A stretch of 32,000 bases of DNA from Geobacter metallireducens GS-15 (lineage in GTDB: Bacteria; Desulfobacterota; Desulfuromonadia; Geobacterales; Geobacteraceae), in the NCBI RefSeq assembly GCF_000012925.1, contig NC_007517.1, positions 990,001-1,022,000 of the forward strand, written 5' to 3'. Below, in pieces: positions 22,719-31,567 of this stretch (the first letter of the stretch is position 1; each line of letters opens with the position of its first letter). Below the pieces are notes generated by a model. It made no database searches and was not told where the DNA came from. It saw only the letters and a list, made by a program, of their open reading frames with translations. A program made the position numbers and the translations under genes.

Positions 22719-23765
<1,047 letters not shown>

Positions 23766-23772
23766 TTCGACC

Positions 23773-23807
23773 CCTGTCCGCCGTGCGGGAGAAGCGCCGC
23801 GGACAGG
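23773..23807 (+). other. 9-bp stem hairpin just after mreB (no U-tract)
   Basis: CCTGTCCGC (23773-23781) / GCGGACAGG (23799-23807). It could be a partial terminator or an RNA-processing site. Confidence 0.3.
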
Positions 23808-23911
23808 CCCGTTATAAGAAGCCGCATGGATGACGCGTCGCCGGGAAGAACTGACTTCCCCGTCGACAGGCCGTCCATGCGGTTTGCTCGTTTTCCGACC
23901 CGCAGTTCACC

Positions 23912-25006
23912 ATGCTACCCGCAGGCGTGACGATTCCCATGACACCCTTCACTGTCGACATACTCATTCCCATCTGGAACCGGCCCGTTGAAACTCGCAA
24001 CTGCCTGGTCACCCTCATGGAGACCACCCCTTCCGCCCGCCTCATTCTCATTGACAACGGCAGCGACCGGGAAACCGAACGGCTTCTGGAAGAGTTCTCC
24101 GAGATTCTCGGGGAGCGTGCGCTCTTCCTGAAGACCAGCGCCAATCAGGGCTTCGTCAGGGCAGTGAACCGCAGTCTCGCCCAGGTGGAAGCTCCCTATG
24201 CGGTCGTTATGCAGAACACAACCCTGGTGACAAGGGGGTGGCTGGAGCCGATGGTGGAGTTGGCCGATTCCCGCCCCGATGCGGGTATCATCGTGCCGCG
24301 CCTGGAGCTTGAGGACGGACAGGGGCGAAGGCCGAAAGCCGCGCCACCTGCCGGGCCGGTCACCGAGGTGTCCCATGGGTCCTTTGCCGCCTCCATGGTT
24401 CGGAGAGAGCTCGTGGAACGCCAGGGGGGCTTCGACGAAGAGCTCGACGGTGGTCCCTGGTGCCTCAGGGACTATTCCCGCCGTGCCTTCAGAAACGGGT
24501 TTCTGACCTTAGCCCTCGATGGGGCCGTGGTGACCTATGCCGAAGAGGTTCCCCTCGGCTCCGTTGCCCGGAGGGAGGAGACCGTCCGGCGGAGCGCCGA
24601 AACGTGCCGCGCCCGGTGGGGACGGGAGGATGCCTTTTGCATCTATTTCCCCAAGGATGCCGAGCCCGAAGCGGTTCATGGGAAGCTCGACGTCATCCTC
24701 CGGGGAGCCCGCATGGGGCAGTGCTTTACCCTCATTCTCCACCCGGGGCTCCACAAATCCCTCATGGAAACCGGCCACGCCCCCCTTCACAGCAACATCG
24801 CCCTGGCGCCTCTTCCCCGCTTCTTCGCCACCGGTGAAATTCGCAAAATCATCGGGAAACTTGCTTCCGTTCGCGGCGATACGGTAACGGTCGCCGGCGT
24901 CGACGGCCTCTCCATTCCAGGGGTGGAGGGGGCCAGGTCCTTCAGCTGGCTTGCGGATGAAATCCGGCGCCGGCACGAGTCCCTGTACCGCCCTGAATCC
25001 CCTTGA
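23912..25006 (+). CDS. Family-2 glycosyltransferase with an uncharacterised C-terminal region of about 140 aa
   Basis: ..VDILIPIWNRPVETRNCLVTLMETTPSARLILIDNGSDRET..ANQGFVRAVNRSL.. is a GT2 (GT-A, DxD-type) N-terminal domain. The start may be ATG 23912 or ATG 23939. Confidence 0.7.
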   Translation: MLPAGVTIPMTPFTVDILIPIWNRPVETRNCLVTLMETTPSARLILIDNGSDRETERLLEEFSEILGERALFLKTSANQGFVRAVNRSLAQVEAPYAVVMQNTTLVTRGWLEPMVELADSRPDAGIIVPRLELEDGQGRRPKAAPPAGPVTEVSHGSFAASMVRRELVERQGGFDEELDGGPWCLRDYSRRAFRNGFLTLALDGAVVTYAEEVPLGSVARREETVRRSAETCRARWGREDAFCIYFPKDAEPEAVHGKLDVILRGARMGQCFTLILHPGLHKSLMETGHAPLHSNIALAPLPRFFATGEIRKIIGKLASVRGDTVTVAGVDGLSIPGVEGARSFSWLADEIRRRHESLYRPESP

Positions 25007-25076
25007 GTGAAACCGGGTGACACCTCCGGGCGATTCGGATAAATTTGAAGATCATACAGATTTCCAGGAGGATGCA

Positions 25077-25646
25077 ATGAATGAGGAAATCATGACCCAG
25101 CTCCGGTCCCACCGGGAGGTGATGGAGGCGGTGGAACGGGAGCTGACGCCGCGGATCGCCGCCTTTGCCGGGATGCTCGTTGCCGCCCTGAAAGGCGGGA
25201 AGAAGCTCCTCGTCATGGGGAACGGAGGCTCTGCCGCCGATGCCCAGCACTTTGCCGCCGAGATCGTCGGCCGCTTCAAGATGGAGCGCCGGGGGTTGCC
25301 GGCCGTGGCCCTCACCACCGACACCTCGATCCTGACCGCCATCGGCAATGATTACGGCTTCGACGCCGTTTTCCGCCGCCAGGTGGAGGCCCTGGCCGAC
25401 GAGGGGGATGTGGTTGTCGGCCTTTCCACGAGCGGTTCGTCCCGGAACGTGTACGACGCCCTCGCCCTTGCCAATGACCGGGGGTGCATCACCGTGGGGC
25501 TCCTGGGGCGCGACGGCGGGACCCTCAAGGATATCGTCGATCTCGACGTCACCGTTCCGAGCGGCGATACCCCCCGTATCCAGGAGGGGCACATCACCAT
25601 CATCCACATCGTCTGCGATCTCGTGGAGAAGGGGTTGTTCAAATGA
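25077..25646 (+). CDS. gmhA: Sedoheptulose-7-phosphate isomerase
   Basis: SIS-domain motifs ..[19 protein letters not shown].., ..TAIGNDYGF.. and ..GLSTSGSS.N... ATG 25077 lies 5 nt after CCAGGAGG. Confidence 0.9.
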
Positions 25647-26590
25647 AATACCGTCCCGTCGACCTTTCGGGAGTTTCCACCTACCCCCTTGCCGAGCGGA
25701 AGAACAAGGTGAGCATCAAAAACGACTTCGCCGGCCCGGTTTCCGCGGGGATGAGCGTTGCCGACCTTATGGGCTCGCTGCCGCGGCAACTGGGAGGAGA
25801 GGCCCTCATCGGGGTTGCCGATGCCGTGGCTGATGCCCGGGCCAAGGGAAAGCCGGTCATCCTCGCCATGGGCGCCCACGTAATCAAGTGCGGCCTGCAA
25901 CCGGTGCTGAAAACGCTCATCGAGGCCGGCGCCATCACGGCGGTGGCCCTGAACGGCGCCGGTTCCATCCATGATTACGAACTGTCGCTCATCGGTGAGA
26001 CCAGCGAGGACGTGGGAGCGGTTCTCCACTGCGGCACCTTTGGTATGGCAGAGGAGACCGGCCGTGACATCAACCGGGCCCTGAAGGAGGGAATCGCCCG
26101 GGGGATGGGATACGGCGAGTCGGTGGGGCGTTTCATCATCGACAACGGGAACCCCTTCCGGGAGTGGAGCCTCCTGGCCACCTGCGTGGAGCGGGATATT
26201 CCCGTCACGGTCCACGTGGCCCTCGGCACCGACATCATCCACCAGCATCCGGCCGCCGACGGCGCGGTCATTGGCGAGGCCACCTTCCGGGACTTCCGGC
26301 TTCTCACCTCTGTGGTGGCCGATCTCGGCGACGGCGGGGTCTACCTCAACGTGGGAAGCGCCGTGCTGCTCCCCGAGGTCTTTCTCAAGGCCCTCTCCAT
26401 CGCCCAGAACCTGGGGCACCACGTGGATCACTTCTCCACCGCCAACTTCGACATGCAGCAGCACTACCGCCCCCTCCAGAACGTGGTGAAGCGTCCCACA
26501 TCGGGAAAGGGGCGCGGCTACACCGTAACCGGCCACCACGAGATCATGCTTCCGCTTCTGGCCGCGGCGATCTTGGACCGGTTGAACTGA
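25643..26590 (+). CDS. Deoxyhypusine-synthase-like (DHS-fold) protein of unknown function
   Basis: The start ATG overlaps the gmhA stop (ATGA at 25643-25646). By eye, four segments line up with the DHS layout: ..[43 protein letters not shown].., ..[13 protein letters not shown].., ..[11 protein letters not shown].. and ..[11 protein letters not shown]... This comparison was made from memory, not by alignment. Confidence 0.5.
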
Positions 26591-26629
26591 ACGAGGGGCG
26601 CCCTGAGGGCGCCCTTGGAGAGAGGACGC

Positions 26630-28102
26630 ATGGAACGCAAAAACGTCGAATCGCTCTTCGCCCATGCCCGGGATATCAACGCCCTTGTCATCGGCGACCT
26701 GATGCTTGACGAGTACCTCTGGGGAAGGGCCGAGCGCATATCCCCCGAGGCCCCGGTGCAGGTGCTCGACGTGACCCGGGAGGAAGTCCGCATCGGAGGC
26801 GCCGGCAACGTGGCCAACAACCTGGTGGCCCTGGGGTGCCGGGTGAGCGTCGCCAGTGTCGTGGGGGGAGACGAGAACGGCACGATCCTTCTCCATGCAT
26901 TCTCCGGCAAGGGGGTCGACGTGTCGGGGGTTTTTGAGGACCCGCAGCGGACCACAAGCCGCAAGACCCGCGTGGTGGCGGCCAACCAGCAGATCGTCCG
27001 GATCGACCGGGAGTCCCGCGATCCCATCGGGGCCGGTTACGAGGAGAAGATCGTTGGTTTCCTCCGGGAGCAGGGAAGCCGGTTCAATGTGATCCTCATC
27101 TCCGATTACCTGAAGGGGGTACTCACCCCGACGCTTCTGGCCGCGGTGATCGCCGTTGCCCGGGAGCGGAAGATACCGGTGGTGGTGGATCCCAAGGGGA
27201 ACGATTACACCAAGTACCGGGGCGCCACGCTCCTCACCCCGAACCGCAAGGAGGCCGAGGCAGCGTCGGGGATCGCCATTCGCGACGAGGCGAGCCTTTG
27301 CAGGGCCGGCGAGCGGCTTCTGGCAACGGCCGACCTCACGGCCCTCGTCATTACCCGAAGCGAGGAGGGGATGTCTCTCTTTCTGCGCGACGGCGGCGTG
27401 GTCCACATTCCCACCTTCGCCCGGGAGGTGTTCGACGTGACCGGCGCCGGCGACACGGTGCTGGCAATACTGGGGCTGGCCCTTGCCTGCGGGGTCGGAT
27501 TCGCCGATGCGGCAGGGCTCGCCAATGTGGCGGCGGGGATAGCGGTGGGGAAGGTGGGAACCTCCACGGTGTCGCCCGCCGAGGTTATCGGCTCCATGGG
27601 GTTCCAGCACTCCGACAGCGATGCCAAGATCAAGAACCTGGACGGCCTGGCCGGGATCATCGAAGCGGAAAAGGCGAGGGGGAAGAAGATCGTCTTCACC
27701 AACGGTTGCTTCGACCTCCTCCACGTGGGGCACGTAAAGTATCTCCAGAAGGCAAAAAGCTATGGCGACGTTCTGGTGCTGGGGCTCAACAGTGATGCCT
27801 CGGTCCGCCGGCTCAAGGGGGAGAAGCGTCCCCTCATCGACGAGGCCGAGCGGGCCCACATCCTGGCGGCCCTCGACTGCATCGACTACGTGGTTATTTT
27901 CGACGAGGACACCCCGCTGCGCCTCATCGAAACCCTGAAGCCGGCGGTCCTCGTCAAGGGGGGAGACTATACGCCGGAAGGGGTCGTGGGGAAGGATGTG
28001 GTGGAGTCCTACGGCGGCAGGGTCGAGCTCGTGACCTTCGTGGATGGCCGCTCCACCACGAACATCATCGATAAGATTCTGAGGGCCTATGGTGAGGAGT
28101 GA
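26630..28102 (+). CDS. hldE: Bifunctional D-beta-D-heptose-7-phosphate kinase / heptose-1-phosphate adenylyltransferase
   Basis: It has an N-terminal ribokinase-like domain (..VIGDLMLDEY..PEAPVQV.., ..DVTGAGDTV..). It also has a C-terminal cytidylyltransferase domain (..VFTNGCFDLLHVGHVKYL..). 490 aa. Confidence 0.9.
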   Translation: MERKNVESLFAHARDINALVIGDLMLDEYLWGRAERISPEAPVQVLDVTREEVRIGGAGNVANNLVALGCRVSVASVVGGDENGTILLHAFSGKGVDVSGVFEDPQRTTSRKTRVVAANQQIVRIDRESRDPIGAGYEEKIVGFLREQGSRFNVILISDYLKGVLTPTLLAAVIAVARERKIPVVVDPKGNDYTKYRGATLLTPNRKEAEAASGIAIRDEASLCRAGERLLATADLTALVITRSEEGMSLFLRDGGVVHIPTFAREVFDVTGAGDTVLAILGLALACGVGFADAAGLANVAAGIAVGKVGTSTVSPAEVIGSMGFQHSDSDAKIKNLDGLAGIIEAEKARGKKIVFTNGCFDLLHVGHVKYLQKAKSYGDVLVLGLNSDASVRRLKGEKRPLIDEAERAHILAALDCIDYVVIFDEDTPLRLIETLKPAVLVKGGDYTPEGVVGKDVVESYGGRVELVTFVDGRSTTNIIDKILRAYGEE

Positions 28103-28667
28103 GGAGGGCCGCGCGGCCGTCTTTCTTGACCGGGACGGCACCATCAACGTGGAGAAGGAGTACCTCCACCGGGCCGAGGAGTTCGAGTTCGTCCCCGGGG
28201 CGCCGGAAGCGATCCGGCTCCTGAATGAAGCCGGATTTCTGGTGGTGGTGGTGACCAACCAGTCGGGGGTTGCCCGCGGCTACTACGACGAGGCGGCGGT
28301 CCACCGTCTCCACCGCTTCGTGGACAACGAGCTGGCAAAGGCCGGCGCCTCCATCGACGCCTACTATCTCTGCCCCCATCATCCCCGCCACGGCATCGGC
28401 CCATACCTCACCGAGTGTGCCTGCCGTAAGCCCCTTCCCGGCATGCTCCTCGCCGCGGCACGGGATCTGGGCATAGACCTTGCCCGCTCCTGGATCGTCG
28501 GCGACAAGGCGGCCGACGTGGAAGCGGGTATCGCCGCCGGCTGCCGCCCCCTGCTGGTCAGGACCGGCTACGGTATTTCGGAGGCTGGACAGGTCCCCTC
28601 TGACGTGACGGTCTGCGACGACCTCCTTGCCGCGGCCCGGGTGATTCTGGCAAGAACCCAAGAATGA
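28089..28667 (+). CDS. gmhB: D,D-heptose-1,7-bisphosphate phosphatase
   Basis: HAD motifs ..VFLDRDGTIN.. and ..VVVTNQSGVARGYY.., the Zn-binding CPHHP..CACRKP, and ..VGDKAADVEAG... It overlaps the end of hldE by 14 nt. Confidence 0.88.
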   Translation: MVRSEEGRAAVFLDRDGTINVEKEYLHRAEEFEFVPGAPEAIRLLNEAGFLVVVVTNQSGVARGYYDEAAVHRLHRFVDNELAKAGASIDAYYLCPHHPRHGIGPYLTECACRKPLPGMLLAAARDLGIDLARSWIVGDKAADVEAGIAAGCRPLLVRTGYGISEAGQVPSDVTVCDDLLAAARVILARTQE

Positions 28668-28697
28668 TGGACAGCCCCAGAAGGGGGGAGTTACGGT

Positions 28698-28727
28698 TTG
28701 ACGCTCTTTTCCCTGCTGTGCTATAAC
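28698..28727 (+). promoter_or_regulatory. Candidate internal sigma70 promoter upstream of rfbA
   Basis: TTGACG (28698-28703), an 18-nt spacer, then TATAAC (28722-28727). Confidence 0.35.
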
Positions 28728-28776
28728 CGCTTGTCAGAAGGACCATTTTGATTCAATCCCCGGTATGGAGTTCGTA

Positions 28777-29685
28777 ATGGCCATCAAGAAGGGTATCATC
28801 CTCGCCGGCGGCGCCGGCAGCCGCCTCTATCCCCTTACCCTCGTTGCCAGCAAGCAGTTGCAGCCGGTCTACGACAAGCCGATGATCTACTATCCCCTGG
28901 CCACCCTCATGATGGCAGGGATCAGTGACATCCTCATCATCTCTACCCCCCATGACACCCCCCGCTTCCAGTCGCTCCTCGGCGACGGCTCCCGCTGGGG
29001 GATCCGGCTCACCTACAAGGTGCAGCCCGAGCCCAAGGGAATTGCCCAGGCATTCCTGGTGGGGGAGGAGTTCATTGCCGGCGATCCGGTCTGTCTCATC
29101 CTCGGCGACAACATCTTCTACGGCAAGATGGGGCTCGACCGGGCCATCCGCGATTTCGCCGGAGGCGCCCTTGTCTTCGGCTACTACGTGAACGACCCCG
29201 AACGGTACGGGGTGGTGCAGTTCGACGGTTCCGGCAAGGCCATCGGCATCGAGGAGAAACCGGCTGCCCCCAAGAGCAACTACGCCGTGCCAGGGCTCTA
29301 CCTCTACGACGGGAAGGTTTCTGAGATCGCCCGCAATCTTGCCCCTTCCGCCCGGGGGGAGCTGGAGATCACCGACGTGAACCTGGAGTACCTGCGGCGG
29401 GGCGAACTCATGGTGGAAAAGCTCGGCCGGGGAATCGCCTGGCTCGACACCGGCACCCACCAGAGTCTCCTGGAGGCATCCCACTTCATCGGCACCCTGG
29501 AGGCCCGGCAGGGTCTCAAGATCGCCTGTCTCGAAGAGATAGCCCTGAGGATGGGGTATATCGACTGTCGCAAGATGGCGGAGGTGATTGCCGCCACTCC
29601 CAACTCCTCGTACCGGGAATACCTGGTGCGGGTCCATAACGAAACAAACCTGTGCGGAGGGCATGACGATGCAAAACTTTCCTGA
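28777..29685 (+). CDS. rfbA: Glucose-1-phosphate thymidylyltransferase
   Basis: ..[17 protein letters not shown]...[17 protein letters not shown].. is the canonical RmlA N-terminus. ATG 28777 is preferred because GGAG lies 5 nt upstream. ATG 28765 is possible. Confidence 0.9.
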
Positions 29686-30157
29686 GTTCAAGAAAGGGAA
29701 GATTCACGATGTAGCGGTGCGCCCCTTGACGAAATTCCTCGACGAGCGGGGGTGGCTCGCCGAACTGTTCCGCAGCGATGAAACCGATGCTGCCACCATG
29801 CCGGCCATGGCCTATCTCTCCATGACCCAGCCGGGGGTAGCCCGGGGACCCCACGAGCACGTGGACCAGACCGACTGGTTCTGCTTTATCGGTCCCTCCA
29901 ACTTCAAGGTCTATCTCTGGGATGCCCGGCCCACCTCTGCCACTTTCGGGGTCAAGCAGACCATCTATGCCGGCATCGATGCCCCCCTTGCCATGATTGT
30001 CCCTCCCGGCGTGGTCCACGCCTACAAGAACGTCGGCGGAGAGAACGGGATCGTTTTCAACGCGCCGAACCGTCTCTATGCCGGCGAAGGGAAGAAATCG
30101 CCGGTGGACGAGATCCGGCACGAAGAGGTGGAGGGGTCTCCCTTTACGCTCGATTGA
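29663..30157 (+). CDS. rfbC: dTDP-4-dehydrorhamnose 3,5-epimerase-family (RmlC-like cupin) protein
   Basis: ..[11 protein letters not shown].. and ..GVARGPHEH.. fit the RmlC-like pattern. 164 aa. The ATG at 29663 overlaps the rfbA 3' end by 23 nt. Confidence 0.65.
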
Positions 30158-30263
30158 TCAAGGACGTCACAGCCGTTGCCCTTGATCGGCGATATGCCGA
30201 TCTACCCTCGAATCTTTCGGCCGAACGGACCGTTTGCGGTTCCCGAGGCCAGAACATCGCTCC

Positions 30264-31085
30264 ATGCTCGAACTGATCAGGAAATACCGGTTCCACCTGC
30301 TGACCGGCGCGGCCCTGCTGGCGGCCCTTGCCTTCTATTCCCTCAGCCTGCGGGATCGGGAGCACGCAAGCGGCTTTGAACGCATGGTCATCGATCTCTT
30401 TGCGCCGGTTCACAACGTTGGTGCCGGTGTCAGCGGTTTTTTTTCCGGCGTCTGGAATGACTACATCGACCTGGTTGACGTCCGGGCAGAGAACAAGCAG
30501 CTGCGCGAGTCGGTGAAGACCCTCAACTCCCGCCTGATCGAGAACCGGGAGGCAATCCACGAGAACATGCGGTTGAGGCAGCTCCTGGACCTGAAGGCGA
30601 TCCAGCGGGCGCCGTCGGTGGCCGCCATGGTGATCGGTGAAGACAGCTCCCCCTGGTTCAAGACCCTGGTCATCAACCGGGGGGCGGTGGACGGCCTCCA
30701 GGAAGGGATGCCGGTGGTGGCCGCCAACGGCGTGGTGGGCCAGGTGATCAAGGTGGCGGCGGGGAGTTCCCGCGTGTTGCTCCTCACCGACACCGCCAGC
30801 GGCATAGCCTCGGTGGTCCAGCGTTCCCGGGCCAGGGGTGTTGTCAAGGGGAAGGGGGGCGGTCTCTGTTTCCTCGAATTCTCCCTCCGGGAGGAAGATG
30901 TGAAGGTCGGCGACATGGTTGTGACCTCCGGCATCGGGGGGATCTTCCCCAAGGGGCTCGTCATCGGCGAAGTGACCATGGTGAGGAAGGGAGAATACGG
31001 CATCTTCCAGACCATCAGCGTTCGTCCGGCCGTGAATATGGCAAGGCTTGAGGAAGTTCTCGTTCTCTTGCAGAAGGCGCCATGA
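30264..31085 (+). CDS. mreC: Rod-shape-determining protein MreC
   Basis: It has an N-terminal TM segment, a coiled-coil region (..ENKQLRESVKTLNSRL..) and the C-terminal beta-domain ..VVTSGIGGIFPKGLVIGEV... The preferred start is ATG 30264. Confidence 0.88.
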   Translation: MLELIRKYRFHLLTGAALLAALAFYSLSLRDREHASGFERMVIDLFAPVHNVGAGVSGFFSGVWNDYIDLVDVRAENKQLRESVKTLNSRLIENREAIHENMRLRQLLDLKAIQRAPSVAAMVIGEDSSPWFKTLVINRGAVDGLQEGMPVVAANGVVGQVIKVAAGSSRVLLLTDTASGIASVVQRSRARGVVKGKGGGLCFLEFSLREEDVKVGDMVVTSGIGGIFPKGLVIGEVTMVRKGEYGIFQTISVRPAVNMARLEEVLVLLQKAP

Positions 31086-31567
31086 TCAAGTTCCTCTGGT
31101 ACGCCATCCTTGTCTTCGCGGCGCTCGTCATGCAGGTAACCCTCTTTCCTGCGCATATTGCCGATCCCTTCAAGCCCAACCTCCTGATTATTTTCGTGGT
31201 CTACATGGGGCTGCGGGAGGGGGTCGCCTGGGGGGCGCTCGCCTACGTTCTCGGCCTCATCCATGACAGTTTCAGCGGTCTCTATCTGGGACTGAACGGT
31301 TTTTCCTACCTGATCATTTTTCTGGGGCTCACCATGGTGGCCGACCGCCTCTTCACCGACCGGCGCTCGCTCATGATCCTCGGGGTCTTTTCCTCAACCA
31401 TCGTCAATGGCCTCCTGAACCTGCTTCTGCTCTTTCTCTTCTCCTCAGCCCAGGGGATTTACGCAACCCTCCTCGAAAGCCTCGTCCCCCAGGCCCTTGT
31501 CAATGCCCTGGTCGCCTCCGTTATCTTCACCGTTCCCCCCCTTGCGCGGATTGGGGAGGCCCGATGA
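31082..31567 (+). CDS. mreD: Rod-shape-determining protein MreD
   Basis: 161-aa polytopic membrane protein. ATGA start/stop overlap with mreC upstream and with the PBP2 gene downstream. Confidence 0.8.
   Translation: MIKFLWYAILVFAALVMQVTLFPAHIADPFKPNLLIIFVVYMGLREGVAWGALAYVLGLIHDSFSGLYLGLNGFSYLIIFLGLTMVADRLFTDRRSLMILGVFSSTIVNGLLNLLLLFLFSSAQGIYATLLESLVPQALVNALVASVIFTVPPLARIGEAR

Follow-up and report, generated by a model that had tools for sequence, protein, structure and literature searches.

A GSU2086-family protein with a deoxyhypusine-synthase-like fold as a candidate stand-in for the heptose epimerase HldD

We analyzed a 32,000-nucleotide stretch of the Geobacter metallireducens GS-15 genome (NC_007517.1, positions 990,001 to 1,022,000; hereafter the window), in which a gene of the GSU2086 family (25643..26590, + strand, 315 amino acids) lies between gmhA and hldE. 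We propose, with about even confidence and by analogy with enzymes of similar fold, that the GSU2086-family protein is a heptose 6-epimerase dependent on nicotinamide adenine dinucleotide (NAD) that is not a short-chain dehydrogenase/reductase (SDR) and that stands in for HldD. Put more generally, the family is probably an analogous enzyme for a known pathway step. The first-pass annotation of this DNA had suggested a non-orthologous heptose-modifying step at this position. That idea is supported by the fold, by the lack of hldD in the genome, by linkage to heptose genes across phyla, and by the near-exclusion of HldD.

Linkage to heptose genes and near-exclusion of HldD

The open reading frame between gmhA and hldE translates without internal stops, and both peptide stretches quoted in the first-pass annotation are present in it (residues 77-113 and 185-197). 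Its ATG (25643-25645) overlaps the gmhA stop codon (TGA, 25644-25646), so direct reading of the sequence gives the ATGA start/stop overlap at 25643..25646 (+) that had been described. The start at 25643 is correct: the NF052581 model aligns from residue 5, and homologs are 314-320 amino acids long. The match to NF052581 is full-length (429.5 bits against a cut-off of 250, E = 7.8e-129, residues 5-309 on model positions 1-301), and the family name, "GSU2086 family protein", carries no function. The closest named homologs, from Geobacter hydrogenophilus and G. grbiciae, are 97-98% identical. The family is large, with at least 8000 clusters at 90% identity in one search and 2682 clusters at 50% identity (E < 1e-3) in a second. 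The window protein and two phage copies that we compared with PHROGs had no family there. In the literature, we found no function assigned to the GSU2086 family and nothing joining deoxyhypusine synthase (DHS) with heptose or gmhA. The sole mention of GSU2086, the G. sulfurreducens ortholog, that we found is in a transposon-sequencing (Tn-seq) study of growth on electrodes, where it shows the same growth defect as the pathway genes (-3.2 for GSU2086, -3.1 for hldE and -3.7 for gmhA; PMC5585712).

The association of the family with heptose genes holds across phyla, both by adjacency and by domain fusion. Among the Desulfobacterota, gmhA is directly upstream in 25 of 30 loci, and in 18 of the 20 loci viewed over ±8 kb. 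We also collected 80 loci outside the Desulfobacterota, from about ten phyla (Nitrospirota, Acidobacteriota, Poribacteria, Methylomirabilota, Verrucomicrobiota, Omnitrophota, Bacteroidota and others). There, gmhA adjoins the family gene in 42 of the 80 loci, and other neighbors are an HldE-type nucleotidyltransferase (15), a kinase (13), gmhB (5) and a glycosyltransferase family 9 (GT9) heptosyltransferase-like gene (5). Of the 80 loci, 53 have one or more heptose genes, in each case on the strand of the family gene, and HldD is found at none. The spacers between gmhA and the family gene are mostly -4 to +40 nucleotides, and the 4-nucleotide overlap or a gap of less than 40 nucleotides recurs in other phyla. 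Outside the Geobacter group, the gene pair is flanked by variable housekeeping genes (hemC, argH, adk, ispF), and separate genes at other genomic sites encode the kinase and the nucleotidyltransferase. Three distant members were found mostly on short contigs with uninformative neighborhoods.

The family domain is fused to SIS domains (two cases, P0142 and P0189), PfkB kinases (two, including P0208), HAD/GmhB-like phosphatases (two, P0235 and P0247) and nucleotidyltransferases (seven, including P0129, P0138, P0150, P0158 and P0225). It is also fused to a whole HldE (P0238) and to an ARMT1-type phosphatase plus a nucleotidyltransferase (P0176). No fusion to an SDR is among those found. Profile searches with NCBIfam and Pfam confirmed that the window holds GmhA, HldE and GmhB and no HldD, as the first-pass annotation had it. 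The family domain therefore replaces none of the four canonical enzymes, since each occurs in fusion with it and all of them are also encoded in the window; it would instead supply an additional, fifth activity.

We searched the whole genome for hldD, taking TIGR02197 above its cut-off as the marker for HldD. The 4.01-Mb genome (4,011,182 bp, two contigs) has no canonical hldD; its highest-scoring match to TIGR02197 reaches 122.6 bits, where the cut-off is 274.6. The same genome encodes WaaC and five other GT9 genes, which indicates that it uses heptose. We then compared the distribution of the family with that of HldD in three phyla. The 401 Desulfobacterota genomes include 256 with the family and 84 with HldD, but only 16 with both, against 53.6 expected. 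For the 101 Nitrospirota, the corresponding numbers are 65, 22 and 0 (14.2 expected), and for the 121 Acidobacteriota they are 36, 21 and 1 (6.2 expected). One-sided Fisher tests of co-occurrence gave p = 2e-21, 4e-13 and 3e-3, respectively. Two unpublished genomes are counted among the Acidobacteriota (G429 and the family-positive G454); removing them shifts counts by one, and no conclusion depends on them. We consider replication in three phyla a more meaningful control than the p-values. Five family-positive genomes from other phyla likewise have GmhA, the kinase and the nucleotidyltransferase and no HldD.

Close relatives of the window genome show three states of the operon, the third of which, with neither gene, is described further below. 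Four genomes, including that of the window, have the order GT2-gmhA-X-hldE-gmhB without HldD (G000, the window genome, G102, G196 and G357), where X is the GSU2086-family gene and GT2 a glycosyltransferase family 2 gene. Five others have GT2-gmhA-hldE with nothing between gmhA and hldE, and HldD elsewhere (G027, G066, G166, G309 and G283). One genome (G255) has the full order with X plus HldD. Near-exclusion in three phyla is the pattern predicted by non-orthologous replacement, and a fifth enzyme that avoids HldD is most simply understood as its functional analog.

Fold and predicted cofactor site

The first-pass annotation had proposed a DHS-like fold, and structure comparisons agree with it. 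An AlphaFold2 model built from A1, an alignment of 95 diverse family members, has a predicted local distance difference test score (pLDDT) of 97.4 and a predicted template-modeling score of 0.92. The top Foldseek matches in the Protein Data Bank (PDB) are deoxyhypusine synthases (template-modeling score 0.55-0.65, E ~1e-9), followed by 3c2q and ArgZ. VIA-align placed the C-terminal domain of AgrE/ArgZ first (Z 21.0-21.5, root-mean-square deviation (rmsd) 2.9 Å over 211-218 residues), with P. horikoshii DHS at Z 20.8, 3c2q (M. maripaludis, LOR/SDH-like) at Z 20.5 and human DHS at about 19.7. The AgrE entry 6lrg is titled as a ternary complex with ornithine and NAD+. By sequence alone, the family profile finds ArgZ, AgrE and 3c2q, the only PDB sequences that it reached, at E values of 1e-6 to 4e-5 over residues 56-119. 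Identity to the DHS- and AgrE-type structural matches is 10-18%. Judged from the model, the protein lies closer to the cyclodeaminase branch of the fold than to DHS proper.

Conservation is concentrated where a ligand would be expected. In alignment A1, 5 positions are invariant and about 40 more are nearly so. These include G77, H79, K82, N104-G105, H110, D111, E113, T120, H191, G195, N236, G238 and S239, and in the C-terminal part K249, D270, Y275, R276, R284, G297, H299 and E300. In the AlphaFold2 model, the conserved residues come after six parallel strands, at the cleft in which enzymes of the DHS fold take up cofactor and substrate. Two chains carry two tandem copies of the family domain (P0122, 679 amino acids, and P0172, 582 amino acids), which hints that the working unit is dimeric, as in DHS.

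DHS and the ornithine cyclodeaminases use NAD+ catalytically, giving the hydride back in each cycle. HldD epimerizes ADP-heptose by the same logic, through transient oxidation by a bound nicotinamide cofactor. By analogy with DHS and the AgrE cyclodeaminase, a GSU2086-family enzyme would hold NAD(P)+ that transiently oxidizes the substrate and returns the hydride, with no net redox change. The protein would act in the cytoplasm as a fifth, tailoring step beside GmhA, the HldE kinase, GmhB and the HldE adenylyltransferase. It would epimerize ADP-D-glycero-beta-D-manno-heptose, or a heptose phosphate, at C6 to the L-glycero form for the inner core of lipopolysaccharide (LPS). Oxidation at C6 should be safer once the 7-phosphate has been removed, which favors ADP-heptose or heptose-1-phosphate as the substrate, and the frequent nucleotidyltransferase fusions agree with this. 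We infer both the identity of the substrate and the L,D-heptose product.

Comparison with the known systems separates fold from family. HldD (also GmhD or RfaD; TIGR02197, an extended SDR) takes the same place in the proposed pathway, once four steps have produced ADP-D,D-heptose, has the same proposed chemistry and occurs in a complementary set of genomes. The two differ in that HldD has an SDR Rossmann fold with no relation in sequence or fold to the DHS-like one, and the GSU2086-family protein does not match TIGR02197. HldD also usually lies away from gmhA, whereas the GSU2086-family gene is nearly always beside it. AgrE/ArgZ and 3c2q (PF21570, TIGR00300-type) are the best structural matches as a group (Z 20.5-21.5, rmsd ~3 Å, 211-219 residues). 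They have the motifs G-x-x-V-I-x-x-G and N-G-A-x-x-x-H-D-x-E in common with the family, the second ending in the H-D-x-E core. However, only about 65 residues align with them by sequence (PF21570, 19.6 bits against 27, residues 58-120), and the C-terminal half of the GSU2086 family has its own invariant K249, Y275, R276 and R284. Its genes lie in the setting of heptose synthesis and not in that of arginine or ornithine metabolism.

Similarity to DHS (PF01916, EC 2.5.1.46) extends over the whole chain (Z 19-20.8 over 253-293 residues), and archaeal DHS has a matching His-Asp behind strand 2. Identity is nevertheless 10-16%, NF002630/PRK02301 scores 17.3 bits against 364, and PF01916 gave no reported match. 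To our knowledge, bacteria are without eIF5A, the substrate of DHS. The Pfam hits of the protein are all sub-threshold, the relevant ones being ArgZ-like_C_2nd (E = 8e-4) and deoxyhypusine synthase (E = 2e-3); a match to Amidohydro_2 (E = 0.0023) was treated as noise. Membership in DHS, the PF21570 cyclodeaminases and the SDR epimerases is thus ruled out by their defining models, and only the fold and two motifs are shared with the first two.

Weighing the epimerase assignment

Several observations weigh against an epimerase that replaces HldD. The NAD contacts of P. horikoshii DHS are T101, A102, G103, E107, D214 and D320 (PMC7432094). In a motif-level mapping through a HMMER alignment to 8put, the N-G-A of the family falls at T-A-G and H110-D111 at the Glu/His-Asp positions, so that a loop of small residues and the His-Asp are retained. 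Several of the DHS contacts are replaced in this motif-level mapping, with the T-S-N loop becoming G-A-H and a His standing at Asp320, and NAD binding by the GSU2086-family protein is therefore only predicted from the analogy. The tightest linkage is to gmhA and not to the nucleotidyltransferase that makes the HldD substrate. The defect of GSU2086 in Tn-seq may be a polar effect on hldE. The Fisher p-values are too favorable, as related genomes do not count as independent observations, and 17 genomes have both genes.

Further points on the same side come from the gene content of genomes and operons. In four close relatives (G135, G226, G333 and G381), gmhA-hldE-gmhB are contiguous without X or HldD, and the hldE reading frame of G135 is intact. 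Among the Acidobacteriota, 65 of 121 genomes have neither gene, and nearly all of these have an HldE-type nucleotidyltransferase. These cases mean that the step is dispensable, as would be expected if many lineages use D,D-heptose, and genomes with neither X nor HldD fit lineages that use ADP-D,D-heptose directly. In the five relatives that have HldD only, hldD is not near gmhA or hldE and never occupies the same operon slot. In the window genome, waaC and galE of the LPS core cluster flank a gene for a 336-amino-acid SDR epimerase/dehydratase (L003 1195-2205, - strand; approximately G000:C1:2637313-2638323). This SDR passes no equivalog cut-off, with a best score of 155 bits, and could be a divergent epimerase. 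Our confidence in the epimerase assignment stays near even because the cofactor is a prediction, linkage is biased toward gmhA, 17 genomes are double-positive, HldD does not share the operon slot, and an SDR lies beside waaC.

A fairly unlikely alternative is that the family is a heptose-pathway enzyme with a different activity, namely some other tailoring or isomerization of sedoheptulose-7-phosphate, heptose-7-phosphate or a nucleoside-diphosphate heptose. Such an enzyme could epimerize another carbon or feed a second nucleotide-heptose, and would then define a type of LPS or glycan alternative to the HldD type. It would fit with the linkage to gmhA, which is stronger and more widespread than any other and persists where the genes for the kinase and the nucleotidyltransferase lie scattered. 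Two rfaE_dom_II-like nucleotidyltransferase genes are present in 28 of the 36 family-positive Acidobacteriota compared with about 38% of the others, and this doubling may point to a second nucleotide-heptose branch. One viral contig from IMG/VR (L187 5528-10163) carries, in order, a nucleotidyltransferase, a family member, a PfkB kinase, a GDP-mannose-dehydratase-like SDR and a second SDR. With its two SDR dehydratase/epimerase genes, this cassette resembles a pathway by which the phage would make a modified heptose, possibly a deoxyheptose. Furthermore, the His/Asp/Glu-rich cleft could hold a metal instead of NAD, and the SDR beside waaC could be the true epimerase. On the other hand, D,D- and L,D-heptose are the only heptoses commonly met in LPS inner cores, avoidance of HldD in three phyla most simply means the same product, and the nearest structural relatives all use NAD+ for transient oxidation.

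It is improbable that the protein assists GmhA as a non-catalytic or auxiliary partner, such as a regulator, a scaffold or a repair enzyme that clears a side product of the heptose pathway. Translational coupling to gmhA and the gmhA fusions would suit a partner of this kind, as would the dispensability of the gene in close relatives whose operon is otherwise the same and the one fusion with an ARMT1 "damage-control" phosphatase domain. Against this, about 45 near-invariant residues at the canonical active-site cleft, kept in phage copies, argue for catalysis. Repair or regulation does not predict the avoidance of HldD, and the fusions involve enzymes of every pathway step rather than GmhA alone.

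An aminobutyl transferase of the DHS or homospermidine-synthase type, or an ornithine cyclodeaminase, that sits in the heptose operon by chance is very improbable: UniRef and some JGI records label members "deoxyhypusine synthase", and the fold and two N-terminal motifs are common to DHS and AgrE, but the scores against PRK02301 and PF21570 fall below threshold, identities are those given above (10-18%), linkage and fusions consistently involve heptose genes, and no polyamine or arginine-pathway gene was among the scanned neighbors. We found no support for the link between heptose and polyamine chemistry that the first-pass annotation had suggested as an alternative.

Operon surroundings, phage copies and significance

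NCBIfam and Pfam identified the neighbors of the GSU2086-family gene as mreB, a GT2 glycosyltransferase, gmhA, hldE, gmhB, rmlA, a weak rmlC-like reading frame, mreC and mreD. The GT2 gene (23912..25006, +; Glycos_transf_2, E = 2e-14) is the first gene of the block after mreB, and it is kept upstream of gmhA in relatives as well. The upstream partner gmhA (25017..25646, +) encodes the sedoheptulose-7-phosphate isomerase, a SIS-domain protein. It scores 213.7 bits with PRK13936 and 205.3 bits with TIGR00441, both slightly below cut-off, and matches SIS_2 at E = 1e-27. The bifunctional hldE (heptose-7-phosphate kinase and heptose-1-phosphate adenylyltransferase; 26615..28102, +, with a likely ATG at 26630) exceeds the NCBIfam cut-offs of both TIGR02198 (403 bits) and TIGR02199 (220 bits). 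The heptose 1,7-bisphosphate 7-phosphatase gene gmhB (28089..28667, +) scores 202 bits with PRK08942 against a cut-off of 178. Together, the 6.5-kb block GT2-gmhA-X-hldE-gmhB-rmlA-(rmlC-like) splits mreB from mreC and mreD (window 22722-31567). Insertion of the block after mreB is seen again in several relatives (loci L045, L071, L073-L075, L151 and L174). In G135 (locus L065), mreC comes directly after gmhB.

The 39-nucleotide spacer between the GSU2086-family gene and hldE contains a GC-rich hairpin (26595..26614, +), recognized by its fold energy (-22.8 kcal/mol, z -2.75). It consists of two copies of the palindrome GGGCGCCC with a 3-nucleotide loop, giving a GC-only stem of 8-10 bp. The terminator scan did not call it, and no T-run follows it. 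It may be an element of mRNA stability or processing, not a terminator.

Some neighborhoods elsewhere hold additional genes. In three unrelated Desulfobacterota, a small cyclophilin-like protein (PF04126) is encoded directly downstream of the gmhA-X pair (L051 8923-9291, L056 8935-9243 and L060 7594-7971) and could be a third partner of the pair. Two Poribacteria loci (L082 5473-7011 and L084 5255-6901) have no adjacent heptose gene; the upstream gene encodes an O-antigen-ligase-like (Wzy_C) membrane protein, so that the context is still one of envelope glycan.

Family members also occur on phage contigs and preserve nearly all of the conserved residues. Three copies in IMG/VR (L188 452-1366, L190 5977-6891 and L191 5920-6789; 39-41% identity) lie between the large terminase (GpA) and a lambda-type portal gene, away from any other heptose gene. 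Most of the conserved residues are present in these three, but H191, D217 and H299 are not. Two further phage-like loci place a family member between very large multi-domain glycosyltransferases (L043 3229-9780) and between a methyltransferase and a sulfotransferase (L182 4618-7621).

L-glycero-D-manno-heptose is the signature sugar of the LPS inner core, and ADP-heptose is a bacterial signal sensed by the ALPK1 pathway of the host. Extended from the window protein to the family as a whole, our proposal is that the GSU2086 family is a previously unrecognized, NAD-dependent, non-SDR 6-epimerase of ADP-heptose (or heptose phosphate) with a DHS fold, a claim that we hold at a little short of even confidence. 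It would supply L-glycero-D-manno-heptose in HldD-less bacteria, covering most Desulfobacterota and Nitrospirota and many Acidobacteriota, Poribacteria, NC10 and Verrucomicrobiota, and phages would use it as an auxiliary gene that remodels the heptose pool or LPS core of the host. The proposal is directly testable with one protein, commercial ADP-heptose and an E. coli hldD mutant. Absence of HldD is accepted as indicating D,D-heptose only, and a preprint on Coxiella argues in this way (PMC13252051). If the GSU2086 family is an analogous epimerase, this inference no longer holds across much of the bacterial tree, and a fold known only for amine oxidation, in deoxyhypusine synthase and ornithine cyclodeaminase, would gain a sugar-nucleotide activity. 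If the family has another activity, it still represents a highly conserved step, without assignment, in a textbook pathway.

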